64,000 bases of DNA from Deltaproteobacteria bacterium (GCA_040223695.1 JAVKFU010000015.1:632692-696691); one strand, 5' to 3'. Positions 33,001-50,760 are shown, counted from the stretch's first letter. Program-made: numbers and translations. Notes: generated by a model from the letters alone, not told the origin.

Positions 33001-34027
33001 CCGCCGTTTGAGCCGCAGTATCTACACCCTCCACACTCGTGCTCATCGTGTCTATAGACTTGCTTGCTTGTCCGGTCTGGTCTATCACACCTTGAAGCCC
33101 GTCTTGACTTAGGTTGTTGGTAGATTCTGTAACATCCTCAGTAACACCGAGAAGTTCCCCCAACTCTTCTTTCGTATGCCCGAATATTACTGCCCCTTCC
33201 CCCGCGTTTTTAACTAAATCAACAAGAGATGTCGAAAATTCACCCTGCGCTGTAGTCCCTTCCTTCATCGCCGCAGACTGCTCCAAGGCCGATTCTCTAG
33301 CTTTATCGTATTGCAGACTAAGACCCTGTAATGTCAGACGGAGGGTCTTAAAACCCCTGTCTTGTTCATCAATTGCCCTTTGTAATTGCGTTGATACTGA
33401 TGGTCCAATAAATTCCTCTAAGCCACGACGTTGAAAATCCTCAACTTTTAGGTCAGGAATGTCAACCGTTAATTCAGGAATTTCTATACCCTCGATTTTA
33501 CCAAATTCTTCATTCAAATCACTCTGTAGCGCTTCTCTATATGCCTGCGCTAACTCTTCAATTGTTCTTCCTTTCGCAAGAAATTGTTCAAATTGTCTTT
33601 TAGCTATTTCTTGCAAATTACCTTCAATAGGTTCTGCTTTTTGGGGATTAACAAAAGGTCTTAGATCTACTGGCAAATCAACTATCACGCTTTCATTAGT
33701 GAACGGTTCCAGAATATCTTTAATAAGCAAGTTGATATTATGACCAATTTCCGCAGCCTGTTCACCACCAATCAACTTTGCAGCGTTCGTTAAAATATTT
33801 CCAAATGGAGAATTTGTTTTAAAAACTCTGTCAAATGCAGATTCCGCTTGTTTCATTGACGATTCAACATCTTTATTAAACTTGAAAAAAGTAGATTCTG
33901 ATGTTTTAGTAATAAACTCAAATCCGTCTCTAAATTCTTCGAATGTACTATTAGCTGTCTTTCCTAATTGTATTAATTGCTCATCTTCTACAATAAACTT
34001 GACCGTAATTTCATTTATCTCTGCCAT
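30092..34027 (-). CDS. giant helical protein, phage tail tape measure protein-like
   Basis: 1311 aa with no signal peptide. Long coiled-coil segments. A central Gly-rich hydrophobic block, GGIGGSIGDILGGGSGIAGLFGFAGGAAA...ALAIPLLSGLF, is typical of tape measure proteins. An AT-rich promoter region lies upstream. Confidence 0.5.
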   Translation of the reverse strand: MAEINEITVKFIVEDEQLIQLGKTANSTFEEFRDGFEFITKTSESTFFKFNKDVESSMKQAESAFDRVFKTNSPFGNILTNAAKLIGGEQAAEIGHNINLLIKDILEPFTNESVIVDLPVDLRPFVNPQKAEPIEGNLQEIAKRQFEQFLAKGRTIEELAQAYREALQSDLNEEFGKIEGIEIPELTVDIPDLKVEDFQRRGLEEFIGPSVSTQLQRAIDEQDRGFKTLRLTLQGLSLQYDKARESALEQSAAMKEGTTAQGEFSTSLVDLVKNAGEGAVIFGHTKEELGELLGVTEDVTESTNNLSQDGLQGVIDQTGQASKSIDTMSTSVEGVDTAAQTAADGGLDEFSERVENLNESGGFFEGIKQGFEDFVESVGSNSELIADFFANTLSQMSQNFSDLFFNVLTGKFEDLKDLVKQAFEAILRSFLDLVAAIVTKQIVVSIGALFGLAGSARGAGGSADIVGGVGGIGGSIGDILGGGSGIAGLFGFAGGAAATIPATAVPGSLGVGGLTGGVSVGTLAAGELPSTGFLAGIGGIGGALSILGAVAVAAALAIPLLSGLFKKTPRLDIEFDSIKEEGERRAAFISELLDTDTLINDIIDISVKRSAGLGVGGSDKIKEILGDAIQGAVNNLLDIINKLPADLADKLTDELLNTELDTETVVAGERLFEFDAKGKKIAEKFNQLINGEIQAKFLFAVDGFLQTMFESLGVLPDAAASFLDERFREFESAGSREARAAVGQDLLADLNAFVDAFNIVEGNINDAIGTTINSVNSLSRTLGFDAVPSIDQLTEELGELIKNAELDPETVQNYVELRNAILSLTSEIVSSISSLIGKISQLNSTIAGFGGSSVDLTGFLNTAIGQVQGFFTDNIENLSLSEQEALLDDLAGLGNQLLAEEQAAFQARQEAARRAAEAQRAAIERRIDGLNEEKERIQEAFDERIDALNEELRLAEEFASLAESIRRTLDSILFSPESVLTGVEQVNALQSNIAQLQQELAGTVDPERQVEIVARLEDAFKTLFDVAGDAFGVNSPEFVAIFDQVTGGLDALAELTETRGRSVEEINAEIERLTQEQNAQIERIDARIEALQDRLSAIGEQTAQNTFQASQRLIELFEFIRGEYIRILEERFAQLEEVSEFGFDNEIEGLQAIAGINDEQLVVLRSIESVLQNVQGFAEGTGGLIRDFGRGTLAVLHGREAVLTEDQLVQLRAGLINQFVSAVASGPGLADQFRESIGTGDGLLSRFVERIGGDEGGSGEMHVDINVNVNGGSGATAASIGTEIENMLVRSIRQGGRLRSAIQDAGAKRLN

Positions 34028-34217
34028 TTCCAGTACCTTGATTAACGTATCGACAAATTAATCTTTCACTATACGTTTACTTTATTCCTTAGATAGATTT
34101 ATAGGTGTTTGCTTGCAATCCCTCTATATTTAGAACCCTTTATTTATATTGTTGATTAATGGATACATATATGTAATTACTTAACTAGACTTCATATTCT
34201 TATTCTTTTATAATAGC

Positions 34218-34544
34218 GTGATGAAAGAAATCTGCTCCAATTGTCTTTACACCGGTGAGTCCGGTCATAGCGGAAGAAATGCTTGCAGGTTCCCTTTGGC
34301 GGGCCTGCTATTGGGAGTGGGTGTAAACGGTATTACAAGCGTAATACCGGATAGTGAAACTTCCGGTTCCACGCTCGTACTCGTAATAATTACTATTGCT
34401 TGTTTATTTACCGCCTTCTATTTACTTTACAGGTGTATCAATAAGAGCAGGAGAGCATGTCCCAAGTGTAACTATGGCGATATGATTGAGATGAATACCC
34501 CGGAAGCGGACAAACTAGTGGAGCAACATAGCCTGAAAAATTAG
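34218..34544 (+). CDS. split zinc-ribbon membrane protein, paralog 1 of 4
   Basis: N-terminal CSNC, two TM helices, C-terminal CPKCNYGDMIEMNTPEADKLVEQHSL. Confidence 0.55.
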   Translation: MMKEICSNCLYTGESGHSGRNACRFPLAGLLLGVGVNGITSVIPDSETSGSTLVLVIITIACLFTAFYLLYRCINKSRRACPKCNYGDMIEMNTPEADKLVEQHSLKN

Positions 34545-34566
34545 TTTTATATTCTCAAATACAAAC

Positions 34567-34914
34567 ATGCAAAAACTTTGCCCAGAATGTAACTATATTG
34601 GATACGAATCCCGTGGACAGAAATCACTTTTAATATGGGGAATAGCTTTAACTATTTGGGGAGCAATAACACTACTTGGCGCACTTATGCTTTATTCCTT
34701 TTCCGTTAGGATACTTGCGTCAGTAATTTGGCTCTCATTTGGTGTTGTTACCTTATATTACTACATTCATTACCCAAACATATGCCCAAACTGCAAGCAG
34801 AAAAAAACCATGATCCCTCTCGACACTCCCAAAGCCCAGGCCCTAATTAAAGATCACAACCTGACTATCCCGCAAGAAACATCACAACAGTCCAGCCCCA
34901 AAACCACTCAATAA
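34567..34914 (+). CDS. split zinc-ribbon membrane protein, paralog 2 of 4
   Basis: MQKLCPECNYIGY..., two TM helices, ...CPNCKQKKTMIPLDTPKAQALIKDHNLT. Confidence 0.55.
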   Translation: MQKLCPECNYIGYESRGQKSLLIWGIALTIWGAITLLGALMLYSFSVRILASVIWLSFGVVTLYYYIHYPNICPNCKQKKTMIPLDTPKAQALIKDHNLTIPQETSQQSSPKTTQ

Positions 34915-34959
34915 CCGAACATATCTACCATCCTTTTTTATCTGTCATTCTGAATGTAA

Positions 34960-35245
34960 ATTAGAAATCTCGTCTTTGTATTACCCTTCTCGACATTCAC
35001 GGAATTGGCGTTAAGAAAATAGAATATTGAGGCGTAAAAATCTTTCCGGGACGATTTCGAGCTAGCGAGGAATTGGACGCCCTTTCCTATAAGAAATAAT
35101 GTAATTAGTCTCGCTTCACTAAACCACGATTCTAATCAGGGTTGAATTAAAAGATTTTAGCCGAGATAGCCCATTTTTAGCCACATTCCGTGCAGTCGGT
35201 GATTTTTGCTTCTTTTCATCTAGGAAAAGAAGAAAGATGATTTAT
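34960..35245. repeat. modular composite intergenic repeat, copy 2 (full length)
   Basis: About 85% identical over about 280 bp to the 45.76-kb copy. Confidence 0.8.
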
Positions 35246-35655
35246 CTTTTTCCCGCCCAGCCTGAACCTTTCGAAGAATGTCATTTAGAGCGCAGCCGAG
35301 AAATCTATTCATTTATCCTTTAGAGTCTGTCATTCTGAACCCTGTCCTGAACTCGTTTCAGGATCATTTCAGAATCTCGATTTTCATCTTTCAATCCTTT
35401 AATTCCCTCCTTAGTAAAAGGAAACGAATGCGAACGTGTGAGCATTTAGACGCCTTTAGTTAAAAGCACTTATGCCCATTATCTACCGGCACATAAACTC
35501 TTGGAATAAAATAGGGTGGATTTAAAATACAATATAAAAACCTCACCTACGCCGCTAGCCTATACTCCACTTCCTCTACATTAACCTTATTATCATATAA
35601 CTGAACGACCACTCTCCCTTCATCCTCAAAATCCCAACTGTGTTATAATTTCCTG

Positions 35656-36030
35656 ATGCAAAAACTCTGCACCAATTGCAATTTCATCGGCAAAGGTAAG
35701 CACGGCCTCTTGTCCGGCAATATCTATGTCGGAATAATAGAAGTAGTTGTGGCGGTAATTATACTCTTTACAGGCCAGAAGCTCCTTCAGTCTTTTATAT
35801 ACGGAGCCGTGGTCGCGGCAATAGTAGCAATAGCCGGACTGATAAATATTATGGACTCGTTCTCGGAGGGCCGGCTCTGCCCTAACTGCGGCAAGGACAA
35901 GATGATCCCGCTCGACACTCCCAAAGCCCAGGTCCTCATCCAAGAACACAACCTCACAGTCGGCGATAATGTCCCCCAAAACACGCAGAATGACCAAAAA
36001 CCAGACCAGTTTGAAGCCCCCAAATCTTAA
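35656..36030 (+). CDS. split zinc-ribbon membrane protein, paralog 3 of 4
   Basis: MQKLCTNCNFIGKG..., two TM helices, ...CPNCGKDKMIPLDTPKAQVLIQEHNLT. Confidence 0.55.
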   Translation: MQKLCTNCNFIGKGKHGLLSGNIYVGIIEVVVAVIILFTGQKLLQSFIYGAVVAAIVAIAGLINIMDSFSEGRLCPNCGKDKMIPLDTPKAQVLIQEHNLTVGDNVPQNTQNDQKPDQFEAPKS

Positions 36031-36214
36031 ATCCATCTCTTAACTTCCATTCATAACCAACTATTATTCCAACATATTTATAGTAACACTGCAATACTTC
36101 GACCCACCTTTGCAACCACAGCGCCACAACCCCGCTTTTGTTTTTTTCATTCCCCCCCTTAGAAAAAGGGGATACAGGGGGATTTTTCCTATTTCTTATT
36201 CCCTAATGCCTTTT

Positions 36215-36395
36215 CCTTTCCCGACATTCACAGAATTGGCGTTAAGAAAACAGATTATCGAGGCGTGAAAATCTTTTAGGAATGGGGCTGAATTAACAGA
36301 TTTTAGCCGAGATGGTCTGTTTTTAGCCAAATTCTGTTAAGTCGATGATTTTTGCTTCTTTTTATCAAGAAAAAGAAGATATAATTTTTTGCTTT
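36215..36395. repeat. modular composite repeat, partial copy (modules B+D)
   Basis: Contains cccgacattcacagaattggcgttaagaaaacag...gatttttgcttctttttatcaagaaaaagaag. Confidence 0.7.
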
Positions 36396-36522
36396 TTTCC
36401 CTTGTCACTACATGTCGGGTAAAACCTCTCGGCAATCTCAAACCCCCCTTATCCTGAGCCCGGTCAAAGGATAAATACATGCCCCGCTTTCAATCCCTCA
36501 CCCATCCATTATCCTATCCCTG

Positions 36523-36930
36523 GTGAAAAAACTCTGCACAAACTGCTTCTACATCGGATACGAAGACAGGTCCACACACGGGAGCTTCAAGACCGAGTCC
36601 ATCCTCTGGGCGGTTGCCTTTGTCCTCGCATTCACGGGCGTTTTCGAGTCCGACCTATGGCTGCCGGCAACCATAACATTCGCACTCGCCTTTTTCTATA
36701 CTCTGACCATCTTCAGGGTAAAGATATGCGTCTGCCCAAGGTGCGGCCGCGACTCCATGATCCCGCTCAAAACCCCCAAGGCGGAGGCTATAATTCATGA
36801 GCACCACCTCGTGATGCCCAGCGAATTCAAAAATCCTGCGCGCACGATCTTCGGCCTCACATTCCGCGACGCGCTCCTCATCCTCACCACCATCCTTATA
36901 ACCGTCATGCTCTACAACCACTTCACCTAA
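36523..36930 (+). CDS. split zinc-ribbon membrane protein, paralog 4 of 4 (GTG start)
   Basis: VKKLCTNCFYIGY..., TM helices, ...CPRCGRDSMIPLKTPKAEAIIHEHHL. An extra C-terminal TM helix is present. Confidence 0.5.
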   Translation: MKKLCTNCFYIGYEDRSTHGSFKTESILWAVAFVLAFTGVFESDLWLPATITFALAFFYTLTIFRVKICVCPRCGRDSMIPLKTPKAEAIIHEHHLVMPSEFKNPARTIFGLTFRDALLILTTILITVMLYNHFT

Positions 36931-36939
36931 CTACTCATT

Positions 36940-37900
36940 CCCACTTAATCCTTTTTCTCCCTCTCTCTTGAGGGAGAGGGTAAGGGTGAGGGGGCACCTT
37001 CTGTTAAGTCGGCGATTTTTACTTCCTTTCATCAAGGAAAAGAAGATATAATTTTTTGACTTACCCTTGTCATTGCGAGCGCAGCGCGGCAATCCCAAAT
37101 CCGTCATGCTGAACTTGTTTCAGCATCTAACCCTTTGCCTTTCCCCTTCCGTCATTCTGAATTCATTTCAGAATCTAGAATTTTGCTTTTGCCTCCCTTT
37201 CACCCCTCCATAATCTCAAGAATCCTATTGACTCCATACCCCCAAATCATCTATAATAATTACGGAGGTAATTATGACAAGCGAGTGTGACAGCCCACCA
37301 GACAGGTTGGTCGAAAATTCGTGAGATCCGAAAATGGTGAGTACTTAAACAATCACCATAAATAATAGCTAAAACTAGCTATTGCTTAAAAAAAGCATAC
37401 AAACCAAAAAGGGAGCCACAGTGCTCCCTTTTCCATTTCTAGATATAGTAAACATTATTTGTCATTACAAACGAATGTGAGAAATCTAACCCTTGCTTTT
37501 TCTTCGTCATCGCAAACCGCAAAGTGGAACGACAACGTCGCATTATCGAAGTTTGTCATGCTGAACTACGATTTCGAGTAAGTAAGGAATCGGGTCCATT
37601 GACAAATTGCAACCGAGTAAGTATTCCCCTATCATGCCAGTCCAAACCCAAAACTTTCAGCATCTAGCCTTTCGTCTTGTCCATTCTGACATTCACATAA
37701 TTAGCGTCAAGAAAATCTTATGTTGATGCGTCAAAATGTTTTGGGCCGGGGCGGAATTAAAACATTTTAGCGTTAACATGAGATTTTTAGCAATATTATG
37801 TGCAGTCGGTGATTTTTGCTTCTTTTCATCTAGGAAAAGAAGAAAGTCTTTATCTTTTAGTCATTGCGAGTGGAGCATATTATGCGTAGCGCGGCAATCT
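36940..37900. repeat. about 1-kb non-coding cluster of stacked repeat units
   Basis: Contains the gagggagagggtaagggtgagggggc hairpin, a D-module end at 37.00-37.05 kb, gtcattgcgagcgcagcgcggcaatc, gtcatgctgaa, cattctgaattcatttcagaatc, a gtcatgctgaactacgatttcgag...gaggaatcgggtcc C-type unit, and a B+D composite at 37.69-37.87 kb. Confidence 0.75.
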
Positions 37901-37910
37901 AATCTTTTCA

Positions 37911-38240
37911 TTAAGAGCCAGCAATACCCCTACGGCGCCCGAGAGCCTCAATCCCTTCCCCCTTGGCGCCCCTTTTCATTTTCCTCTCCTGAGACTTCAG
38001 GGCAAACTCTCTGAACGCCTCATCCACGGCAATCACTACCCGAAACGCCCTCATCTTCGGATGCCCCTCGAACTCTAGCTTCTCCAGGTTATTCCATATC
38101 TCGGAATGCACCAGTGTGCCTACGGTCATCCCCTGCCCGTAGCGCTGAGACTGGCATAGCTCCCATAGAGATACCCACTCCCGCTGGTGCTGGGGGAGGT
38201 TCCGTATAAATCCTTCCGTCTCGTCCCCCGCCTTTTTCAA
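37911..38240 (-). CDS. downstream -1-frame ORF of a G/GT-like pair (candidate frameshift extension)
   Basis: Its frame is open upstream to about 38476, so it overlaps the last about 52 codons of the 38321..38890 ORF in the -1 frame. No conventional start or RBS of its own. Basic sequence. Confidence 0.4.
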   Translation of the reverse strand: MKKAGDETEGFIRNLPQHQREWVSLWELCQSQRYGQGMTVGTLVHSEIWNNLEKLEFEGHPKMRAFRVVIAVDEAFREFALKSQERKMKRGAKGEGIEALGRRRGIAGS

Positions 38241-38320
38241 TATGCGAAGCTCGTCCCTGTCGTTCTTTTCAAACTTGAGCCTGTTCTTCCGCCTGAGTTT
38301 CCTCTTTTCTTCGAGCTGAC

Positions 38321-38890
38321 TTACCCTGCGTCTGATTGAGTCTGCGCGGTACCTTCTTTTTTCCCCTTTGAAGCGGACTTCGAATCCCTCGTATATCCGC
38401 TCGAAGTACTCCCTGACTCTTCCAAAAAATTTTCCTCTTCTTTCTTCTCCTCCTTCGTGACCTTGCCGGCTATGAGCTCATAGCTCGACCTGAAGTTGCT
38501 AAGCAGGAAAGAGGACTTACAGAACTCATTGTAGAGCCATTCTTTAGTGTCCTTGTCGTATAGCACCCGCTCGCCCTTGTCGGTAAGCCCTGTAATGTCC
38601 TGTATGAGGTTATATACCAGGAACTTCGCGGCGCGCTTCGGGTCTCCTCCGAGAATCTTGAAGCTCCTGTCCTCGACAGTCAGGTCTTGCGTAAGGTCCC
38701 TTATCTGAGTAAGCCTCGCCACTGTCGGGTACGGACACTTGAACCCCACCTCGCGCCAGCCCTCGTCGTAACCCACCCACTCGCCTTTCTCGTCCTGGTA
38801 AGCGGGCCAGTCCTCATCCTCTATATCCCTGTAGGGATATATCGTCACATAATTTGATACATGTTTGGTCAAACTCTTAATTTCAGGCAT
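38321..38890 (-). CDS. acidic protein, phage tail assembly chaperone (gpG)-like candidate
   Basis: 189 aa, acidic (EDEDWPAYQDEKGEWVGYDEGW). Its 3' end holds T TTT TTG (about 38422-38428) and GGGGAAAAAAG (about 38355-38365), both inside the overlap with the downstream -1 ORF. Confidence 0.4.
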   Translation of the reverse strand: MPEIKSLTKHVSNYVTIYPYRDIEDEDWPAYQDEKGEWVGYDEGWREVGFKCPYPTVARLTQIRDLTQDLTVEDRSFKILGGDPKRAAKFLVYNLIQDITGLTDKGERVLYDKDTKEWLYNEFCKSSFLLSNFRSSYELIAGKVTKEEKKEEENFLEESGSTSSGYTRDSKSASKGKKEGTAQTQSDAG

Positions 38891-39130
38891 ATCCCCTCCT
38901 TTACACTATTGCACTATGTCATTCTGAACTTCGTCCTGAACTCGTTTTTCAGGATCTATTCAGAATCCAATCCCTTCCCGCTCATCCTGAGCCTAGTCGA
39001 AGGATGTCATTGAGTGGTTGCAAAGCAACAGCGGCAATCCCGTCTTTCTCTCGTCATTGCGAGCCGCAAAGCGGCGCGGCAATCTCGTCCTTTCCCCTCA
39101 ATCATTTAATCCCCTACCGGGAAAAGAAAA

Positions 39131-39178
39131 GCTAAAAAAGGGCTGTTAGCATTCATTTATTGAATATAAACAGCCCCT
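39131..39178 (-). terminator. rho-independent terminator after the 491-aa gene
   Basis: Minus-strand hairpin aggggctgtt-loop-aacagccct, followed by a TTTTTT run. Confidence 0.55.
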
Positions 39179-39190
39179 TAGCAATAATCC

Positions 39191-40666
39191 TTAAACAACG
39201 GCCTCAACCATATCCTCAACTGTTGGCTGGTTGTTCTTCACCGTAACTGTAATGTCCGTATTCGGCGCGCTGCTGGTATCAAGCCTGCCAAGGAAGCTCT
39301 TCTCATCCGTCACCGGGTCCTTCGAGCTCACGCCCGGATGCGGACTCCCCTCGAACTTGGCTTTGGGCACGCTCATTGTCACCTGATGGCTGTTGTCACC
39401 GATATAGGTCCATATAAAGTCGAGCTGCGTCTCTGTTCCCGCAACTGTCTTCTCAGCGAATTGCTGGCTTCCGTACTGATAAGTGAATGAGCCGCTTACA
39501 GATCCTTCCCCGGGGGTGATCGCGCCCTTGATCGGCGACCCTACGACGAAGTTACCCTGTATGGTATTCTCGATCACGAGACTCAGGTTTTCAAACTGGT
39601 TTGTGGTCTGCTCCACACTGTCCACCTGCACGCTCGATTCCCAATGTGCGTAAGGAATGTTTTCAATCGAGGCCGGAGTCCCGAATATGTTCTCTGACAG
39701 TATTTGAAATGCCTTCCCTACTACGTTCATATTGAGCTGCGGAAGGTCGGTCGGGTCCACGTTAAGAGTAAGATTGCTTACCTTGTTCCCCCTGATAAGC
39801 ATGAGCGATTCAATATCGGTAAACCTCAGAAGGAAACTGATACCCTCGGGAATGGTGGAGCCTCTATAAATCGTATGTGTGAAGGGTTTAATTACTTCAT
39901 CGCACGCCGCCCCGTTAGAGTGAGCCTTCCTGAGCCCGTTGGGATGAGCAGCCGAGTCCAGCGTAAGCTGCCCCGCAGCCGTGCTGCCTATCTTTACAAT
40001 CTCTGCGTCATTTCCCGTGCTTAACTGAGCAAACTCACCGGCTGCGAAACCAACTTCGGATGTCACTGATACCGTTGTATCTCCGGCGGAAGCCGCTGCC
40101 GACAAAGTCGTACTTGCCCCCGCTGTTGACGTTCCGACTGTGGTGTAATCACTATTCAAGGCGTGTAAGTAAAACAGCCCCACTGTCGCTATATCGAGCT
40201 CAACAGTCATATCCGCTCCTGTGTCATAGTTTCCCTCACGGAAGTTTGAAAGTACACGCGAGCCGGAGAGCGCCTGCGACCTCTGCAGATCTCTTCCGCC
40301 GGACGGTGTGAAGGACCTCACGTTACCTAGCTTGAACCAGTTATTAGCCGGGTCTACCTCAACCACAGCCTCCCCCGATTCATGCCTGTAGTTTATCTTT
40401 GTGTTCGCGTCGAGACTCACCGTCGTGCCAGACACGTAACCTGCATCCACCTTTACGAATTCCATATTGTTGTCGTTCCCGACCTTAAGAATATCCCCCG
40501 CCGCGATATTAGTATCGCTCGCTACCGTAACGCTAGTCGCTCCGGGGTTAACAGCTGCGGCAAGCGTAGTGGACGCTCCGCCCCCGACCGCGGCTGACGG
40601 CGTCACGCCGTTTACCTGTTCAATCTTGTACCAAATCTCCGCACTTGAGCCTGAAGCCTGTGCCAT
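39191..40666 (-). CDS. hypothetical structural protein with two tandem ~100-aa N-terminal domains; possible phage major tail protein
   Basis: 491 aa, no signal peptide. Thr/Ser/Ala-rich and beta-rich. An internal duplication is visible (ASTTLAAAV...TSVTVAS...AAGDILKVGND / ASTTLSAAASAGDTTVSVTSEVGFAAGEFAQLSTGND). The phage assignment rests on gene-order context only. Confidence 0.3.
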   Translation of the reverse strand: MAQASGSSAEIWYKIEQVNGVTPSAAVGGGASTTLAAAVNPGATSVTVASDTNIAAGDILKVGNDNNMEFVKVDAGYVSGTTVSLDANTKINYRHESGEAVVEVDPANNWFKLGNVRSFTPSGGRDLQRSQALSGSRVLSNFREGNYDTGADMTVELDIATVGLFYLHALNSDYTTVGTSTAGASTTLSAAASAGDTTVSVTSEVGFAAGEFAQLSTGNDAEIVKIGSTAAGQLTLDSAAHPNGLRKAHSNGAACDEVIKPFTHTIYRGSTIPEGISFLLRFTDIESLMLIRGNKVSNLTLNVDPTDLPQLNMNVVGKAFQILSENIFGTPASIENIPYAHWESSVQVDSVEQTTNQFENLSLVIENTIQGNFVVGSPIKGAITPGEGSVSGSFTYQYGSQQFAEKTVAGTETQLDFIWTYIGDNSHQVTMSVPKAKFEGSPHPGVSSKDPVTDEKSFLGRLDTSSAPNTDITVTVKNNQPTVEDMVEAVV

Positions 40667-40803
40667 ATTGTTCCACCTCCGGTTTTTATATAAAAAAGCC
40701 CGGAACGGCCTGAACCGCCCGGGCTTATATTTTTAATTTGTTATTAGTCATCCTGAATTTATTCAGGATCTAAACTTTTATGATCTAATCCGCTTTCATG
40801 AGA

Positions 40804-41931
40804 CTAGTAATTGATAATCTTCCCGTTCTCATCCCATCCTGTAGTCCTCTGATACTGGCTTTGAAAATCATTACGCCAACTGTCGTTCCACTTCCAGTCG
40901 CCGCTTTTTATCTTCCACGTGTTATAGTCCACACTGTTGTCAGCCGATTCGGCATCGAAAACTTCCAGCGCAGCTACACCGGGGTTAGCGCTCTGGAAAT
41001 AGTTATTTTGAATCTCATTATTCGAACTCTTCCATATGCCCAGATGAGTATGGCTCGTATCGTCTGTTGAAGGATACTTTTCAAGTATAAATTTATTATT
41101 GGTAATTCTAGAATTTCGCACATGATGATATATGGCCATTCCCCAGGAATTATCCTCGATCAGGTTTTTTTCGATATCCAGATTTTCTATCCAGGTTGAG
41201 CATTTCGAGCCGTTCATCTGAATCCCCCTGCCCCCGTGATTTCGTATTACGTTACCGCGAATAGCAACTCCGGAAATCCCCTTGCACTCGAAATCAGATA
41301 GATATATGCCGTGGCAGTGTTTGGGACTCGAGCCCCGCCAGTCCTTGTTGTAGCACTCCCCTTTTCCAGTCCCGTTCGACTCTATTATGTTATTTTCGAT
41401 TGTTATATTATCAGTCGATATGATCAGGATTCCCTGATACGTGTTTCGGTGAATTTTATTATTCCGTATGATATTATTGCCTTTGTAAAGCTTTACCCCG
41501 TCCCAGCCTTTCATTACTTCAAAACCCTGAAACACGATCCATTCGGCGTCGATCTCGACCCTGTCGCCTTCGCCCTTTCCCGGAACGATAATAGGCTTAT
41601 GTCCGGGGTAGGCTTCGATTGTAATCGGTCTCAGACGTGTCCCGCTGTTTTTGACAACAATTTTTCCGGTATAGACACCGCCTATTACCCTGATAATATC
41701 ACCCGGGACTGCTGAATCGACAGCTCCCTGTATGGTTGTGTAATCGCCGTTAGCGCCCGGCGCAACTATCTTCACAGATGGCAAGCGCGCACCTGCTGAT
41801 TCGACGCAATCAGCGCAGCTGGAAGGATCGGAGAGAGTGTAAACGCCTCCCACCACAGCCGGGGCCTGGTCGATAAAATATAGAGGTAAAATTGCAGTCA
41901 AGACAACTGACAGAATTGCCGTCGATTTCAT
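40804..41931 (-). CDS. secreted right-handed parallel beta-helix repeat protein (pectate-lyase-fold; possible depolymerase/tailspike-like)
   Basis: Signal peptide. Repeated NNxIxxN / GxxIxxN beta-helix coils: NNIIRNNKIHRN, ITIENNIIESNG, IRGNVIRNHGG. Confidence 0.6.
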   Translation of the reverse strand: MKSTAILSVVLTAILPLYFIDQAPAVVGGVYTLSDPSSCADCVESAGARLPSVKIVAPGANGDYTTIQGAVDSAVPGDIIRVIGGVYTGKIVVKNSGTRLRPITIEAYPGHKPIIVPGKGEGDRVEIDAEWIVFQGFEVMKGWDGVKLYKGNNIIRNNKIHRNTYQGILIISTDNITIENNIIESNGTGKGECYNKDWRGSSPKHCHGIYLSDFECKGISGVAIRGNVIRNHGGRGIQMNGSKCSTWIENLDIEKNLIEDNSWGMAIYHHVRNSRITNNKFILEKYPSTDDTSHTHLGIWKSSNNEIQNNYFQSANPGVAALEVFDAESADNSVDYNTWKIKSGDWKWNDSWRNDFQSQYQRTTGWDENGKIINY

Positions 41932-42204
41932 AATTTACCAGTTGGCTTCCAGACTTGGCGCTGGATAACCGTTTAATATTATAACTGCCAGACATAGTAA
42001 ATAGCTTTTTACGAATTTAATGCATCTTCCACCAGCCTCAGAACCCGACAAAGATTTTTATTTTCCCCTTCCTTTAACATTTTTTACCTTTTACGTTTTT
42101 AAAAATCATCCTGAATTCATTTCAGGATCTCGTCTTTTATAGATACATTCGCAATTTCCCGCCGGTTTCTAGAGCACAACGTCCGTCTATATAAAAATCG
42201 GCTA

Positions 42205-42906
42205 TTAATAAATAGTCCTCCAGGCATAAGCATCCGCCGCGTCCTTTGCGCAAACTTCAATAGTATCCTTTACTCCCGCATTACCTTCTACCATCCAAAA
42301 TTTGCCTCTTTCAGAAACGCTGCAAGTTGGTTTAACAACAGCCCCTCCGTTATCAGAAATTTTAATCCCCCCCGCTTCAACGGAAACCAGGCTCTTTGCA
42401 TAAATACTATCGGGTCTATTGGCGCCGGTTTTCCCAATATCGCCGCTTGCGTCAGTATTAAATATAAAATCACCATCGTAAATTCTAACTCCAATAACAC
42501 GAGAAATACTAGCTACAACAACTCCGTTACCCCAAAACTCAATATTGTTAACACCATTCATTTTAATTCCAGTATCGTCATCTTCGCCTACCAGTCTCTG
42601 GTCAAATATAATTATGTTGTTAGCACCACCTTGGCCTATAACTGTCTGGTCACTTGTATTGACTGAAAGTAAATTTATATCTGCTGTATTAGCTGCGTTC
42701 CTAGCTTTTATAAGAGTAGAGTTATTAGGACCTTTCAGTGAAGCAGAACCAGTTAGGTTGATATCGCCCGCCATACTCCCGCCGGATTTCGGCAGGACAT
42801 TGGAGGGAATTATAATGTCTGCTTCAATAATATCCTCATTGATCTGCGATTGAGCATAACTTGAAATAAGAATTATAAATACGATAACGAGTATAAATTT
42901 TCTCAT
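42205..42906 (-). CDS. secreted protein with tail-fibre-like SGGSMAGDINL motif
   Basis: Signal peptide. LPKSGGSMAGDINLTGS resembles the GG[ST]M[TA]G motif of phage tail fibre proteins. Confidence 0.4.
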   Translation of the reverse strand: MRKFILVIVFIILISSYAQSQINEDIIEADIIIPSNVLPKSGGSMAGDINLTGSASLKGPNNSTLIKARNAANTADINLLSVNTSDQTVIGQGGANNIIIFDQRLVGEDDDTGIKMNGVNNIEFWGNGVVVASISRVIGVRIYDGDFIFNTDASGDIGKTGANRPDSIYAKSLVSVEAGGIKISDNGGAVVKPTCSVSERGKFWMVEGNAGVKDTIEVCAKDAADAYAWRTIY

Positions 42907-42950
42907 GGATTTCTTTTTTACCTCAATTCACCATTCATTCCGAATGTCCC

Positions 42951-43676
42951 TCAGTTTTTCCAAACTCTACGAGTACTGCCTCCTAGCGGCTGCTTTATTT
43001 CAGCTGCTACAGCAGCCCAATCATTACTTGCACTACCGCTCCAATCATATGTTTGACTTGATGAACTTATGGCAGTAACCCCGCTGATGGACAAATCAGG
43101 TCCCTCTGCTATATTTGCTTGCTCTGTCTGTCCAAGATCAGCAGAAAAAGTCAATGCCGCATTGTCTTTATAACACCCTAATGCAATATTTGCACTTTCA
43201 CCGTTTATGGCATTAGGCACGTGAGTAAGAGCTATGCTTGTAGATGCAGCCGCTGTATTTGAAGCGGTTATATCAGGTGCTTCATCGGCTGCATCTATAA
43301 TCGAAACAGCTATCGCTATTCTGTCTGCTGAATTTGCGCTCAAATCGAATGAGACTGTATTTATGCCGATTGCCGGATTTGTAAGATAATAAATAGAACA
43401 AACACGTAAATTATTATTTATCTGGTCAACGGCTTCCGTCAAAGCAACACCGTTATAAGTTAATGAGCTCACAGATTTTGCGGAGGTACTCTCTACACCT
43501 ACTAACACTACCAGGTAATCACCGTTATTGTCATGATTAAAGGTAAGAGTTGCTTGGTTCGTACCCGATCTCTGAGCAGAGGTTACATTACCAATAGAGA
43601 TAGAAAAAGCACTCTCATAAGCTCCAAAAAACATTAATAATAAAAATAAAGCCATATTAACAATAAAACGCGTCAT
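42951..43676 (-). CDS. hypothetical secreted protein (paralog A)
   Basis: Signal peptide. The C-terminal ...GGSTRRVWKN is shared with the next gene. The two genes overlap by 4 nt. Confidence 0.45.
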   Translation of the reverse strand: MTRFIVNMALFLLLMFFGAYESAFSISIGNVTSAQRSGTNQATLTFNHDNNGDYLVVLVGVESTSAKSVSSLTYNGVALTEAVDQINNNLRVCSIYYLTNPAIGINTVSFDLSANSADRIAIAVSIIDAADEAPDITASNTAAASTSIALTHVPNAINGESANIALGCYKDNAALTFSADLGQTEQANIAEGPDLSISGVTAISSSSQTYDWSGSASNDWAAVAAEIKQPLGGSTRRVWKN

Positions 43677-44386
43677 TTCCAGATTCTCCTCGAATTTCCA
43701 CTTGCCTGCGGTTCAGGGATGGCAAAGGCTATAGCCCCCCAGTCTTTTGCGCCACTGCCAATTGTCCAATCCATAAGGAATGTCCCAGTGCTTGCCATGT
43801 TTTTTGTTGACGAGCCTATCTCCAAACTAAAGGAAAATGCTGCTGAATATTGTAAAGTTTGCCCTATTCCATCGGCCGTAAAACCTGCGTTGGCGTTATA
43901 CCCGACGCAATCTACAATTATAGAGTTAGCGTTTGTGGTCGTTACGCTGATTTGTGGGTCATTACTAAGTCCGGAGGCCGTTTGTGTCACATCCGGCGCG
44001 CCGTCATTCGCTCCATTTAAAGTCATACCACCCGCTGTGATATTCTGAGAAGCCGAAAGTGTTACTTCTATATTCGCTGTCGTTACGGTAGGGCGGCTTA
44101 GATAAGCAAACCATATAGTTGTACCGCCCTGAGTTACTGTCGTAACCGTCATTGCTTCGGAGGTGTTGAATTCGACACTAGATACTGTTGTGGTGCCGCT
44201 GTTATAAACTCCGCAGGCAGTCAAATAATCCTCACCTGTATTTACGACCTGACTCCATGAATGGGTCGTTGCCGTTCCATTATAAGTTGACGTAGTTCCT
44301 ACGGTCGGGACTTGCGAATAACTTGCAGTGGCAAACGGAAACAATACGACAAATAAAATAAATGTATATCCAAAAACTTTAGTCAA
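43673..44386 (-). CDS. hypothetical secreted protein (paralog B)
   Basis: Signal peptide. The C-terminus reads ...SGNSRRIWK. Confidence 0.45.
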   Translation of the reverse strand: MTKVFGYTFILFVVLFPFATASYSQVPTVGTTSTYNGTATTHSWSQVVNTGEDYLTACGVYNSGTTTVSSVEFNTSEAMTVTTVTQGGTTIWFAYLSRPTVTTANIEVTLSASQNITAGGMTLNGANDGAPDVTQTASGLSNDPQISVTTTNANSIIVDCVGYNANAGFTADGIGQTLQYSAAFSFSLEIGSSTKNMASTGTFLMDWTIGSGAKDWGAIAFAIPEPQASGNSRRIWK

Positions 44387-44416
44387 TTAACAAAACTCCC
44401 TTAATCTATTGGGAAA

Positions 44417-45267
44417 TTAGTCGATGATATACCCCACACATATCATATAAGTATCTGTTTCAGGTGATACTGCGTTATCAACATCGAACCTAAGAACCTC
44501 ACGTGCGGTCAGGGTATTTGCCGCAGTAACCGACTGCGCAGTTGCTACAGTCCCAGGCCCACTACAGGTGGGGGTTGTATGCGTCATCGCATTACCCGCT
44601 CCGTCCTCCAGACTAACTTGTGCTACCGTTGTAGGCGCTAGGCCGTTATAGTTACACCAAATGTCCGTGATTGTGACCGCGCTCACGAATGAGCCGAACA
44701 ACATATCATCGTCAGCAGCCGCCAGATTCTCTATAACTATGCAATCTGTAAATTTCTCGTTTTTTGTCAATATATTCGCATCGGTTATTTGAGTGTTCAG
44801 TTCTGAAATAGTATCGAGCTCGGTTTCCTCAATAGGGTCAAAATCAACTTCAGCTGTTGATATTGTTTGACCAAGGAGAGTTACTTCACCAGCAGCATCA
44901 GGAAATGTCACCGCTCTTGCGGCAGTCAGTGCCGGTATAGTAATTGTCATGGTGTCCACACCCTCTTGAATCTGAAGGCTCGTATCGTCCAATATCAACG
45001 GCCCGGTCATTGTGCCACCGGCAAGCAGTAGATAGTTACTGGCAGTTATAGTATCCGGCACATCCGCATCTGTAATAGAACTACAAGTAGGAGCCGCATT
45101 GTCATTCAAAATAATGGCAAACTGGTTAGCAGCGCACGCTCCGATTCCTGAATAATTACTTGCGAGCTCCCCATCCTCTATGGTCTGGCCGAGCAGGGTT
45201 ATTTCCCCTGTCGCATCAGGAAAAGTTACTGTCCTGTCTGCAGTCGGGTCTGTGATTTGGAATGTTG
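44417..45267 (-). pseudogene. tail-fibre-like protein, apparently 5'-truncated (no ATG/GTG start; open frame runs to a stop at 45268)
   Basis: Contains LLLAGGTMTGPLIL and a duplicated VTFPDA(T/A)GE(I/V)TLLGQTI segment. The track ORF starts at an internal TTG. The frame is open for about 50 more codons upstream with no plausible start or signal peptide. Confidence 0.4.
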
Positions 45268-45312
45268 TTTCAAAACACTAGCAGATATAATCTAGTAAGG
45301 AATAAAAAGGGC

Positions 45313-45358
45313 ACAAAAAAAACGGAGATGATGTTCTCAGTCTCCGTTCCTTTTGTTT
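45313..45358. terminator. bidirectional rho-independent terminator
   Basis: aaaaaaaa-AACGGAGA-tgatgttctcag-TCTCCGTT-ccttttgttt. An 8-bp stem is flanked by A8 on one side and a T-rich run on the other. Confidence 0.6.
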
Positions 45359-45443
45359 AAATCTTTGTGGGGCGTTGTTCGCCCATTGATATATAAATTA
45401 TACAAATTACACCACGCTGTCAACAACCTTTTTTAAGCTTCTT

Positions 45444-45644
45444 TTAAAAAGTCTCATAGCTCCCATTCGTCATCCCAAGCTCCGCACCCTTTTTTTCATA
45501 GGAGAGCATTTTGCCGTCAATAAAGCCGAACCTTAGCTCAAGCGCCCTCCCCTCCTTCTCAGCAAGCCCGGAGAGAACCTCCTCAGCCCGCTCCCGGTTT
45601 ACGGTATCCCTCATATCTGCCGGCAGCAAATGCAATATCCTCAC
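45444..45644 (-). pseudogene. relic of a sigma-70 (RpoD-family) gene: region 4 fragment only
   Basis: RAEEVLSGLAEKEGRALELRFGFIDGKMLSYEKKGAELGMT aligns with sigma-70 region 4.2 (VL.GL..RE..VL.LRFG...TLEEVG..FGVT). Homology ends abruptly after GMT. Regions 1-3 are absent. Confidence 0.5.
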
Positions 45645-45649
45645 AATTC

Positions 45650-46040
45650 CGTTATTATATTTCTACATGTCTTTAACCTTAAAAAAACGTCATACTGATT
45701 TCATTTCAACGTCTCGTTTTTCAACCCCCTCATCCTGACCACAATCGAAGGATGTCATCCTTTCGTCTTTTTCTTTCCCGACATTCACAGAATTTGCGTT
45801 AAGAAAATAGTTTGTTATGGCTTAAAAATCTTTTCGGGACGATTTCGAGCAAGTGAGGAATCGGACGCCCTTTCCTATATGCAATAATGTCATTAGTCCT
45901 GCTCCACTAAACCACGATGCTAATTACGGTAGTATTAAAGATTTTAGACAGAATGAACTATTTTTAGCCAAATTCTATGCAGTCGGTGATTTTTGCTTCT
46001 TTTTATCAAGAAAAAGAAGGAAATTCTTTATCTTTTCTTT
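45650..46040. repeat. hairpin unit + modular composite repeat copy 3 (full length B-C-D)
   Basis: catcctgaccacaatcgaaggatg hairpin, followed by tcccgacattcacagaatttgcgttaagaaaatag...ggacgatttcgagcaagtgaggaatcggacgccc...gatttttgcttctttttatcaagaaaaagaag. Confidence 0.8.
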
Positions 46041-46096: not shown

Positions 46097-46570
46097 TCAC
46101 GCATCCCACTCTTCCATCATCTCCGCCTCCCACATCTCCCTGTGCGGGCACACCGAGCCGTGCGTCCTCTCGCGGTACGTACCGTCACCCCATCTTTTTT
46201 GATCATGGCAGAACGGGCAGAAGCTCGCCTTCCTTATAAACACCCCGAACATCGTATTCACGAGCCCGAACTGCTCGCGGTTCCCAAATATCCAGACCCT
46301 TATATCGTTCAGCGAGACCTTTTTTCGCCTGAATATTTCGCTCCCGCGTATTGCCTCAGCACGCTTTCCGTCGAGATACATAGATACCGCTTTGTGCTCG
46401 AGGAGCCTTAAACCTGTGACGTAGTTCTCTATGGCCCGTTCCTCTTCGAGCGTCTCCAGATAAGCCCTGAGCAGAGGCGGCACACCCTCGCCCCGCTTGT
46501 ATCTGGAGAAGTACAAAAGAGCTTCCTGTATGTGCCGGTAAATTAGCTGCCTCTCCGCCCCCTTTATCAA
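46097..46570 (-). CDS. hypothetical protein (C-terminal Cys/His cluster)
   Basis: 157 aa. The C-terminus reads CPFCHDQ...CPHREMW. Possibly translationally coupled to the upstream 83-aa membrane ORF (ATGA overlap). Confidence 0.4.
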   Translation of the reverse strand: MIKGAERQLIYRHIQEALLYFSRYKRGEGVPPLLRAYLETLEEERAIENYVTGLRLLEHKAVSMYLDGKRAEAIRGSEIFRRKKVSLNDIRVWIFGNREQFGLVNTMFGVFIRKASFCPFCHDQKRWGDGTYRERTHGSVCPHREMWEAEMMEEWDA

Positions 46571-46818
46571 TGCCTCTCCCCATCCCTTGACCTGGTGCTT
46601 TCTATGAGGTCTCTTAACGACTGCAGGTTATAAGAGATGTTGCTGCCGAGTCGCCGCTTCTTTGCAGTCTGGCCCATGCTGGCAATCGCGCCGATAATCG
46701 TCATCACTATGAGCGGCGTCATGACCCAGAACCATGACCACTGTATTCTGTCCCACAGCTTCGCCGCTACAAATAGCAGATTCAAATAAACCGCAAACGC
46801 AATATAAAAATTATCCAT
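46567..46818 (-). CDS. small membrane protein (2 TM)
   Basis: Two hydrophobic helices. 4-nt overlap with the downstream gene. Confidence 0.4.
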   Translation of the reverse strand: MDNFYIAFAVYLNLLFVAAKLWDRIQWSWFWVMTPLIVMTIIGAIASMGQTAKKRRLGSNISYNLQSLRDLIESTRSRDGERH

Positions 46819-46862
46819 ATCACTACCCCTCCTTTATCTTTCACCCCCATCTTCTTTAAACG

Positions 46863-47620
46863 CCATTGCGAAGCTCCGAAGGAGCCGCGGCAATCTCATC
46901 TTTAAATAAGTCATTCTGAACTACGATCTGGAACGTGTGAGGAATCGGGTCCACCGGCTAAATGTAATCGAGAAAATGTTCCCTGGTCGTAGTTGTTCGA
47001 ATTCAAAATTTTCAGTGTCTCGTTTTTGTTTTTTTGCTTTTGCCCTCCCGACATTTACAGAAATCGCGTTAAAAAATAAATTACGAAATCGTAAAAATAT
47101 TTTTGGGCTGCAGGTGGAATTAAAATATTTTAGACGTAGTAATTTATTTTTAGCTATTTCTGTTAAGTCGATGATTTTTGCTTCTTTTCATCTAGGAAAA
47201 GAAGAAACTATTTTGCTTTTTATTTGTTATTGCGAGCGTAGTAACACGAAGCGCGGCAATCTCATTCTCAATCCCTCTTCATCCTGAGCCTGTCGAAGGA
47301 TGCTCCCCCCTTTTCTTTTTCTTCCTCCCCATCGAGGAGGAAGTTAAGGTGGGGGGGGACACTATTCTCTTTTATATCCCACAGGCATATACCCACAAGC
47401 AATATGCTATCAAGCTATTATATAAAGTATATCCCTTAGAAATATAAACTATCCCAAAACGGAAAAACACACAAGGGGGTTTTTTACATCAGAGGCAACT
47501 AGTCATTGCGAGGCTCCGAAGGAGCCGCGGCAATCTCATCTTTAAATAAGTCATTCAGAACTACGATTTCGAAGGTGTGAGGAATCGGCCAATGGCTGAA
47601 TGCAATCAAGCATGTGTTCC
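46863..47620. repeat. repeat block: two about 110-bp direct copies flanking a B+D composite element
   Basis: 46863-46975 and 47503-47615 are near-identical (gtcattgcgaggctccgaaggagccgcggcaatctcatctttaaataagtcattc(t/a)gaactacgat...gtgaggaatcgg). A B+D module lies at 47030-47225. A GC hairpin aggaggaagttaaggtgggggggg lies at about 47325. Confidence 0.75.
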
Positions 47621-49689: not shown

Positions 49690-50760
49690 CCGTAGGGTCC
49701 TCCTGAGAAAAGATATTCAAAATATATCCTACCTCCCCGCAACTTTCACCGTTTTCCGCTATTTATTTTTTATTCCTTCCCTCTGTGAGTGGAAGGTCAG
49801 GACAGGGTGTCATTTCGACCAATAGGAGAAATCTTGTCTTCGCCTTATCGCCGTCATTGCGAGGCTGCAGCAACCGCGGTAATTCCATCTTCCATCCCTT
49901 CTGTTGTAGGAGGGGCATCTTACCGCGAACAAACACCCCCTCATCCTGAGCCCAGTCGAAGGATGTCATGCTTTCATCTTTTGTACGTTATTGCGAGCAT
50001 TCGAAGAATGCGCGGCAATCTTGAATCCGCCACTACTATTATGAACAAGTAACAGTTCTGAGCAAGCGAAGAACTGGTCGCCCTTAGCCAAATGCAATAA
50101 TGATATTGTTTTGCTGAAGATTTACTGTACCCAAAATAAATCGTGTCCATTTGTTGCGTATAACCGTGAAATTATCCCATGTATTCTTTCATCTCTGATA
50201 GATTTCAGAACCCCTTATTGAGTAGAAAAAATATATAACATATATTCAATATGTTTACTATATCACATAGTTTAATACCTTTCTTTTTTTCCTGAGCCAG
50301 AGCCATGGATTCCATAGTTAAAGTTAAATATCACCGTGCCCGGAGGGTCTGTTAAAGTAAAAAACGAACCGTTAATGAAGATTATGTAATATTTTATGTT
50401 TACTATTATATATATTAAGTACAAGATCTTAGCTTCCATATTTTATATATACTTTATATTTTCTCATGCCTTTCCAATAATACTTAACAAACTTCAATTC
50501 AGAATACAGGTACTAAATTAGAATGCACTTTAAGTCGTTTTTGCGCACTTTGCATGCCCTATTTCCCCTATGGCTCTTGTAATTCTTTCATTGTTGTGGC
50601 TATCAACTCTTGGCAAACTCGAGAAAGCCGGGCGTTTACCCCACAACCTGCAATGCATCAGCACAGTGAATAAATTGCAATTTTCTCTCCCTCTATTTTC
50701 AAACGTCTCGGGATTCGGATAGACTGTCATATATTCCATCCCTGAGCCAAGGAGTAAAAC

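Follow-up and report, generated by a model that had tools for sequence, protein, structure and literature searches.

A probable defective prophage of an undescribed siphovirus-type lineage, with a predicted exported cassette, in a Deltaproteobacteria bacterium

What does a run of phage-tail-like genes, mixed with genes for signal-peptide proteins and set among cellular genes, represent: an intact prophage, a tail machine that the host has taken over, or the remains of a phage? We asked this of a minus-strand cluster in a 64,000-nucleotide stretch of DNA (hereafter, the window) from Deltaproteobacteria bacterium (GCA_040223695.1 JAVKFU010000015.1:632692-696691). A previous interpretation made without database searches (the sequence-only reading) had placed the cluster at 45360-38321 and proposed a possible domesticated tail or tailocin-like locus, closer to a remnant or a repurposed secreted system than to an intact prophage. 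The features it listed were all found again by open reading frame (ORF) listing and direct reading of the sequence, and its view of a phage-tail origin and of a prophage that is not intact was borne out by the tube profile matches and by the failure to find head or packaging genes in the 64 kb. The extent it gave was too short: phage-derived DNA reaches from about 45674 (upstream, a pseudogene of a sigma-70 region-4-like regulator, sigR4) to 30092 (downstream, the tape-measure gene). We conclude that the segment 30092-45674 is most probably an internally deleted, defective prophage of a siphovirus-type lineage, unable on its own to make a virion or a tailocin. It retains a frameshifted regulator, two-thirds of a fibre gene (the 3′ part), four intact proteins with predicted export, the tail tube, the G/GT pair, four Zn-ribbon genes and the tape measure.

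Tail genes without head genes

By Pfam, PHROG and PDB profiles, the 491-aa protein in the middle of the cluster is a phage tail tube, which refutes a non-phage family and also the statement of the sequence-only reading that no tube is present. It matched PF18906 Phage_tube_2 (2.1e-17) and phrog_290 (8.2e-28), and a profile of its family retrieved 8xan_B, a “major tail structural protein” (1e-19), and the tail tube gp93 of 8ed0. The suspected internal duplication is real: residues ~30-104 and ~183-258 are 36% identical (E 9e-11), the second ~75-aa copy being inserted within the tube core, and relatives have this domain also in a 235-aa protein whose gene lies close to their head genes. The closest solved or cultured relatives of the C-terminal core are 8xan_B and the tail subunits of ~56-62-kb Escherichia/Xanthomonas phages such as Greed and SeppeHuegi (about 20% identity by tblastn), but only the C-terminal ~200 residues align with them, the N-terminal and inserted domains being peculiar to the Dadabacteria lineage. 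The tube has 58 relatives in the database, at 36-88% identity, one of which is named Candidatus Dadabacteria. The terminator that had been noted behind the gene was recovered as a strong stem-loop followed by a T-run (39178-39134). The tail genes and the genes that interrupt them are as follows:

39191-40666, minus strand: major tail tube protein, 491 aa, containing an extra ~75-aa domain twice
39134-39178, minus strand: intrinsic terminator immediately behind the tube gene, with a stem AGGGGCUGUU...AACAGCCCU and then a U-run
38321-38890, minus strand: tail assembly chaperone G, 189 aa, positioned between the tube and tape-measure genes
37911-38477, minus strand: T extension in the -1 frame, an open frame overlapping the slippery heptamer
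34218-34544, 34567-34914, 35656-36030 and 36523-36930, plus strand: four paralogous small membrane proteins with a split zinc ribbon
30092-34027, minus strand: tape-measure protein, 1311 aa, intact, with weak matches to Tape_meas_lam_C and phrog_4070

Twenty related loci, among them those from a locus search with an alignment of seven tube sequences, were compared with the window by tblastn and clustering (loci are given below as L-numbers and protein families as F-numbers). G, for which PADLOC gave no match, is present in all related loci and is 98% identical to its counterpart in L013. The window carries the slippery heptamer A_AAT_TTT at 38432-38426, overlapping a T_TTT_TTG. In 16/16 related loci a slippery heptamer lies in the overlap between G and the -1 frame (A_AAT_TTT in 15, T_TTT_TTG in L004), and the -1 frame continues past the stop codon of G without interruption, giving an extension of 122-152 aa. 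The 189-aa ORF and the -1-frame ORF thus behave as a G/GT pair with a predicted -1 frameshift, in support of the pair suggested by the sequence-only reading.

The interruption described between G/GT and the tape-measure gene was likewise found, as the four plus-strand paralogs at 34218-36930 followed by the 1311-aa tape-measure-like ORF. The paralogs consist of a CxxC, two transmembrane helices, a second CxxC and a MIPLDTPKA motif, and matched nothing in Pfam or PADLOC; the one ortholog pair compared gave a ratio of nonsynonymous to synonymous substitution rates (dN/dS) of 0.47. Opposite-strand copies of this family occur 3′ of T in nearly all related loci that reach this position (the exceptions are L004 and L018), and wherever a tape-measure gene is present they sit between it and T. 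The family was found in L002, L003, L005, L006, L008, L009 and L011-L017, in one to five copies antisense to the tail genes, and in L015 and L016 also between successive tape-measure ORFs. The 1311-aa ORF is identical over its full length at 38.6% of positions to a 1273-aa protein of L003 and at 43.5% to a protein of L006, and in the clustering it groups with the tape measure of L004, a protein with PF10145. Some relatives, L015 (13211-19488) and L016 (14853-21470), have a series of two or three tape-measure-like ORFs, an arrangement uncommon among siphoviruses.

No gene for the rest of a virion was detected. When 16 head, connector and distal-tail proteins of the lineage were searched against the 64 kb by tblastn, only the tube's own extra domain was matched, and there was no trace in the 64 kb of the terminase large subunit (TerL), the portal-sized 490-aa gene, the scaffold, the major head protein, F18, the 235-aa protein, F10, the tail terminator (PF23818), F7, F43 or F44. 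The portal and capsid of L004, used as tblastn queries, did not match the 64 kb either. A Pfam scan of every ORF of at least 250 aa in the window revealed no terminase, portal, capsid, integrase or sheath gene, as the sequence-only reading had said, and Pfam and PHROG scans of the cluster revealed no sheath, gp25 or VgrG-type domain. No holin or endolysin was found in 30092-45674; a GH25 lysozyme gene (1.8e-40) at 13555-14340 on the minus strand lies 16 kb from the tail cluster, and no link between the two was found. An integrase domain is absent from the scanned ORFs, and there are no tRNA genes in the window; the direct repeats found at the edges are not att sites but members of a dispersed family of intergenic repeats. 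No homolog of the major head protein is reported on the 770-kb source contig. With this gene content the remnant would be unable to package DNA, to terminate a tail or to build a tail tip, and we infer that it produces no particles.

On both sides the element is flanked by ordinary cellular genes (ECF-type sigma factor, SpoIIAA-like, HEPN, phosphodiesterase, esterase, NmrA-like, major facilitator superfamily transporter and beta-lactamase-fold proteins), the SpoIIAA-like gene coming next after the tape-measure gene. The HEPN gene (25405-27006, plus strand) encodes a 533-aa protein with tetratricopeptide repeats and a LA2681-like HEPN domain (1e-36), has a GC content at third codon positions (GC3) of 0.29 and no PADLOC match, and is probably a horizontally acquired defence/toxin-type gene. 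A chimeric assembly was considered and rejected since independent assemblies agree: the beta-helix and tube genes of the cluster are found at 100% identity on an independent Logan contig, so the locus is not an assembly artefact. The 241-aa protein of the cluster is identical to a protein on the 770-kb NCBI MAG (metagenome-assembled genome) contig.

The parent phage lineage

Matches in genome collections come from Dadabacteria / Thermodesulfobacteriota MAGs, and the parent lineage is widespread in MAGs of Candidatus Dadabacteria and Thermodesulfobacteriota. The bacterium whose chromosome holds the remnant is taken to be an uncultured one of Dadabacteria type. Its genes recur in one order. TerL, a portal-sized gene of ~460-490 aa, a sigma-r4-like gene, the scaffold and a 276-aa major head protein come first; small connector-sized proteins, the tail terminator, a variable exported block, the tube, the transcription terminator and G/GT follow; and the antisense Zn-ribbon genes, one or more tape-measure ORFs, F43 (265 aa) and F44 (a Gp80-type fibre) come last.

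Several members are much fuller than the window element. IMG/VR contig 3300028845_000195 carries TerL (PF03237/PF17289), the 490-aa gene, sigR4, scaffold, major head protein, tail terminator, tube and tape measure. Terminase_6N/6C was found in IMG/VR contig L019 and in L020, which is the closed 2.67-Mb genome OZ244991.1; L006 has scaffold phrog_2303, major head protein phrog_267, the tail terminator PF23818 and Gp80 PF23140; and L004 has the portal PF05136 and the capsid PF25209. Terminase, scaffold, major head protein and tail terminator are all four present in L016 together with L019 and in L020, and distal-tail genes are present in two loci, L006 (where F43 and the Gp80 fibre F44 follow the tape-measure gene) and L018. 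OZ244991.1 has the element in one piece from TerL to a point past the tube, and the lineage is therefore one of genuine tailed phages; some of the fuller relatives are called viral by IMG/VR. Two element copies, with several genes fragmented, were seen in a single MAG (L009 and L012, contigs 57 and 58 of MFD09730.bin.2.52), and could reflect two strains in one bin, long-read frameshift errors or a real duplication.

The odd gene order and the signal peptides had been taken by the sequence-only reading as signs of repurposing, tailocin formation or domestication. Neither sign holds: the same order, and the same leaders, recur in fuller members that have head and terminase genes, and both are therefore ancestral phage traits. 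The idea that decay had rearranged the gene order was rejected on the same ground.

The tail module resembles that of lambda-type phages (gpV, G/GT, gpH) in having a tube, a G/GT with an X_XXY_YYZ slippery site, a tape measure and a terminator after the tube. Unlike the lambda-type module, the lineage of the window has an exported block between the tail terminator and the tube, antisense Zn-ribbon genes between GT and the tape measure, a tube with two extra ~75-aa domains and, in some relatives (L015, L016), two or three tape-measure-like ORFs.

Since tube, G/GT and tape measure are intact and no head genes lie nearby, one may ask whether the locus specifies a functional head-less particle of the F-type tailocin kind, or the tail part of a system resembling a gene transfer agent (GTA), with its other genes elsewhere in the genome. 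That the lineage is common in Dadabacteria genomes, that GTA_holin_3TM proteins are encoded in L004 and that the GH25 lysozyme gene is 16 kb away would agree with such a particle, which we nevertheless consider highly improbable: the element has no tail terminator, distal-tail or tip gene, its only complete fibre with the lineage N-terminal motif is a 233-aa protein, its regulator is frameshifted, the cluster has no lysis cassette, the 770-kb source contig has no reported major head protein, and the fuller relatives carry a terminase and look like ordinary phages, some with viral calls.

Comparison with defined systems points the same way. F-type tailocins (F-pyocins, monocins) are, like the window element, chromosomal flexible-tail genes without head genes, but the window has no tail terminator, tip or baseplate, complete long fibre, lysis cassette or working regulator. 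A gene transfer agent differs in that no head genes are found in the window, and vertical inheritance is suggested by no more than a single locus, the one next to the same SpoIIAA-like gene. Contractile systems (R-type tailocins, extracellular contractile injection systems, type VI secretion systems) differ in that the cluster has no sheath protein. The tailocin, GTA and contractile definitions thus do not fit the window, in which terminator, tip, complete fibre, lysis genes, working regulator, head genes and sheath are lacking.

The predicted exported cassette and the upstream end

Between the regulator and the tube, where relatives have their variable block, the window contains the following features:

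45309-45674, minus strand: sigma-70 region-4-like small regulator, a pseudogene (ORF 45644-45444), with a weak Sigma70_r4 match
about 45347-45314, minus strand: terminator of the regulator, hairpin and T-run
45279 to 44417, minus strand: open frame of a 5′-truncated fibre-like gene, family F6, first canonical start TTG at 45109
43673-44386, minus strand: secreted paralog 1, 237 aa, jelly-roll domain like the head of a receptor-binding protein (RBP), C-terminus RRIWK
42951-43676, minus strand: secreted paralog 2, 241 aa, same domain, C-terminus RRVWKN
42205-42906, minus strand: secreted short fibre-like protein, 233 aa, family F13, with a leader, the post-leader sequence QINEDIIEAD and SGGSMAGDINL
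40804-41931, minus strand: secreted right-handed beta-helix protein, 375 aa, PF13229 2.5e-16, NosD 4.9e-11

Orthologs of sigR4 in L006, L003, L019 and L020 are 86-100 aa long, the L019 copy matching PF04545 (2.3e-8), and the window copy needs a change of frame near 45470 to continue as ...MGAMRLFKRSLKKVVD, which matches them. In a tblastx comparison with L019, homology from sigR4 (about 45674) stops at ~45309, where the window jumps to the middle of the fibre gene. This gene, in which direct reading confirmed the 5′ truncation and the duplicated segment reported earlier, contains LLLAGGTMTGPLIL and two copies of VTFPDAxGE(I/V)TLLGQTI, and the window copy shares 82.6% identity with residues 204-489 of the extended L013 ORF. 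Because the L013 ortholog is full-length (424 aa, with an N-terminal signal peptide), the window copy must have lost the signal peptide and about 140 N-terminal residues. The truncated F6 protein had no match in Pfam, PHROG or PDB sequence searches, and the L013 ortholog gave a marginal tblastn match (E 3e-3) to a Pelagibacter phage baseplate protein. Just upstream of the pseudogene are two overlapping minus-strand ORFs of 157 and 83 aa (orf157 and orf83, 46097-46818) that matched nothing in Pfam, PHROG or PADLOC; no counterpart exists in the fuller phages, and they were not counted as part of the element.

The two secreted paralogs overlap by 4 nt (43673-43676), have hydrophobic leaders and are 29% identical, in agreement with the pair with RR(V/I)WK ends described before. 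Their predicted fold resembles that of actinophage “minor tail proteins” (phrog_2106) and of the RBP head domain of lactococcal phage Tuc2009; those, however, are cytoplasmic virion parts, whereas in the window each paralog is a separate protein of ~240 aa that starts with a Sec-type leader. The structure of the jelly-roll domain was predicted from a 63-sequence alignment at a mean predicted local distance difference test (pLDDT) score of 81.8; a prediction from a two-sequence alignment (pLDDT 43.6) was unusable. Foldseek comparison of the predicted structure with the PDB gave no match below E 1e-3, and a word-indexed homolog search with the 241-aa protein returned only the protein itself. A full HMMER scan found the domain in 1911 representative proteins, among them large extracellular proteins with LamG, DUF2341, CBM9, DUF11 or type IX secretion sorting domains. 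L013 has a single gene at this position, to which the paralogs are only 26-29% identical, while neighbouring genes are 81-98% identical.

The 233-aa protein, 81% identical to its L013 ortholog, does have the SGGSMAGDINL motif and the leader attributed to it, but the GGxMxG motif matched no tail-fibre profile in Pfam or PHROGs, and the protein as a whole had no Pfam, PHROG, PDB or PADLOC match. The parallel beta-helix nature of the 375-aa protein was confirmed by Beta_helix/NosD matches; it has a leader, also matched PF22842 (Pel9A-like) and, weakly, the phrog_2234 tail spike (5.7e-5), and a PDB sequence search with it gave nothing useful.

The leaders were called by a sequence rule (one or two basic residues, at least 11 hydrophobic residues and an AxA-like site) and not by a SignalP-type predictor, and Sec-type export of the cassette proteins is accordingly a prediction. 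Family-wide, the rule is mostly met by F7, F6, F13, the LamG-type F8, the jelly-roll families F22 and F48 and the beta-helix families F4 and F16; most exceptions look like mis-called starts or truncated ORFs. The tube, G, the major head protein, the scaffold, the tail terminator, F10, F18, F43 and F44 never have a leader-like start. OZ244991.1 has an extra sub-block (602, 632, 133, 187, 78 and 104 aa) whose proteins lack leaders, and the exported block proper therefore starts at F7. In the lineage the block is made up of the small F7, fibres with the post-leader motif, LamG or jelly-roll lectin-like proteins and beta-helix proteins. F6 and F13 share the post-leader motif IQQDV(I/V)xRD (QINEDIIEAD in the window), as fibres that dock together might.

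The block varies between relatives, and its base composition in the window is atypical: GC3 is 0.28-0.51 in the cassette (0.28-0.40 in the three small proteins), versus 0.56-0.64 in tube, G, T and tape measure and 0.55-0.66 in most host genes, which fits a horizontally exchanged cassette. Literature searches returned no description of Dadabacteria phages or of Sec-exported tail-fibre cassettes. Candidate roles for the exported block are receptor masking, matrix-degrading release factors, or fibres that join particles only after lysis. It is conceivable, if rather unlikely, that the Sec-exported block (F7, fibres with the docking motif, jelly-roll/LamG lectin-like proteins and beta-helix enzymes) is an extracytoplasmic phage module, of which the 237-, 241-, 233- and 375-aa proteins of the window were kept by the host as secreted or surface proteins once the virion genes had been lost.

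Decay, selection and possible present-day function

The closest relative, L013 (tube 88% identical), adjoins the same SpoIIAA-like gene (92.5% aa identity) and has lost other parts than the window. It retains the major head protein, the tail terminator and the full fibre gene; of its tape measure only two short fragments are left, next to an rve transposase, and a frameshift affects one of its Zn-ribbon genes. Relatives at the same locus with different losses are the pattern expected of decay.

The deletions may have been mediated by an intergenic repeat of about 180-270 nt with the hairpin CTTCTTTTCATCWAGGAAAAGAAG, present in eight copies (0 expected by chance), which could be an element resembling a miniature inverted-repeat transposable element. 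It had no Rfam match, nor had anything else in the window. Seven of the eight copies fall within the phage-derived region or at its edges, both ends (29.9 kb and 46-47 kb) having copies, and many copies also lie between the phage genes of L013. Their positions in the window are as follows:

29938, 35201, 36347, 37014, 37811, 45988, 47173 and 58037, all plus strand: copies of the hairpin repeat family

Intergenic repeats of a second kind, resembling repetitive extragenic palindromes (CATTGCGAG...CGCGGCAATCT and TCATCCTGAGC...GTCGAAGGATGTCAT), were found at 38976-39094, 45724-45771, 46855-46948, 47495-47588 and 49935-50021, one of these sites being between the tube and G genes.

Selection on the retained genes was estimated from comparison with L013 and, for changes on the window's own branch, from counts of single-nucleotide changes that could be assigned with six outgroups. 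The dN/dS against L013 was 0.10 for the tube, 0.02 for G, 0.13 for T, the beta-helix protein and the 233-aa protein, and 0.065 for the 3′ part of the fibre gene, and values are the same in all pairs family-wide, viral contigs included. On the window's branch, T had 1 nonsynonymous versus 6 synonymous changes and the beta-helix gene 3 versus 10; the outgroups were too divergent for a branch-specific test of the truncated fibre. By neither measure was relaxation of selection detectable in the retained genes. The synonymous rate (dS) against L013 was 0.4-0.8 in the element and 0.61 in the flank, with the fibre F6 (1.94) as the exception.

Several of these results weigh against a simple defective prophage. 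The dN/dS of the element (0.02-0.13) is similar to that of the flanking host gene (0.06), and the window-branch changes of the tube (4 nonsynonymous versus 46 synonymous) and of G (2 versus 14) are strongly skewed in the same direction. The similar dS of element and flank fits long vertical residence, in which case selection would have acted on an element that was already defective. Decay is not seen in the retained genes (the 3.9-kb ORF of the tape measure is intact, as are the four secreted genes), and the GC3 of tube, G, T and tape measure equals that of the host. Finally, a helper copy that complements the element in trans, or the head genes, may lie elsewhere, the analysis having covered part of the genome. 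The lack of relaxation means either that the deletions are recent relative to a dS of about 0.4, or that active phages integrated separately, or that the genes are maintained; the data fit all three.

Maintenance would correspond to a partly domesticated remnant, in which the host has kept the exported cassette as surface or secreted glycan-binding or -degrading proteins, and possibly also tube, G/GT and tape measure, by selection. The remnant adjoins the same SpoIIAA-like gene in two diverged genomes with similar synonymous divergence of element and flank, strong purifying selection is seen on the branch of the window itself, the secreted genes are intact with terminator-like hairpins 3′ of the 233-aa and beta-helix genes, the jelly-roll domain occurs in many bacterial extracellular multidomain proteins, and incomplete prophages are known to be enriched in tail-fibre genes (PMC7744054). 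We still regard domestication as unlikely. The same-locus copies have lost different parts, their common set being only the tube, G/GT, the 233-aa protein and the beta-helix protein; the cassette operon opens with a truncated gene, immediately behind a terminator and with no evident promoter; the window has lost F7, a small secreted protein encoded ahead of the fibres in most loci that cover this position; the GC3 of the cassette has not been ameliorated to that of the host; and an equal signal of selection would be expected had related active phages integrated independently at this site.

We therefore return to the internally deleted prophage. Cryptic prophages as a kind are already known (general pattern in PMC7744054), and those of E. 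coli K-12, for example, are similar in being late-region fragments among host genes that have lost packaging, head and lysis functions and kept tail and fibre genes, with some pseudogenes. The window element differs in coming from an undescribed phage lineage, in having no visible integrase or att site, and in that selection on its retained genes is not relaxed. Within it, the tube, G/GT and tape-measure genes were most likely orphaned recently, and the exported proteins would be the part most likely to be active still, as stand-alone secreted proteins of an adhesin-like, carbohydrate-binding or carbohydrate-degrading type; any such present-day function we infer.

A decayed prophage locus is in itself common, and the value of this one is that it gives access to a phage lineage, not characterised so far, of Dadabacteria, a group from sea and soil that has not been cultured. 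The lineage has two odd features throughout: a block of exported RBP-like and polysaccharide-active proteins within the tail operon, and an antisense Zn-ribbon array. If the exported block is a phage module, it would constitute a class of exported phage receptor-binding-like proteins not described before, and if these proteins act in infection, release or exclusion, this would add something new to phage biology. Host co-option, if true, would provide a clean case of prophage-derived surface proteins.

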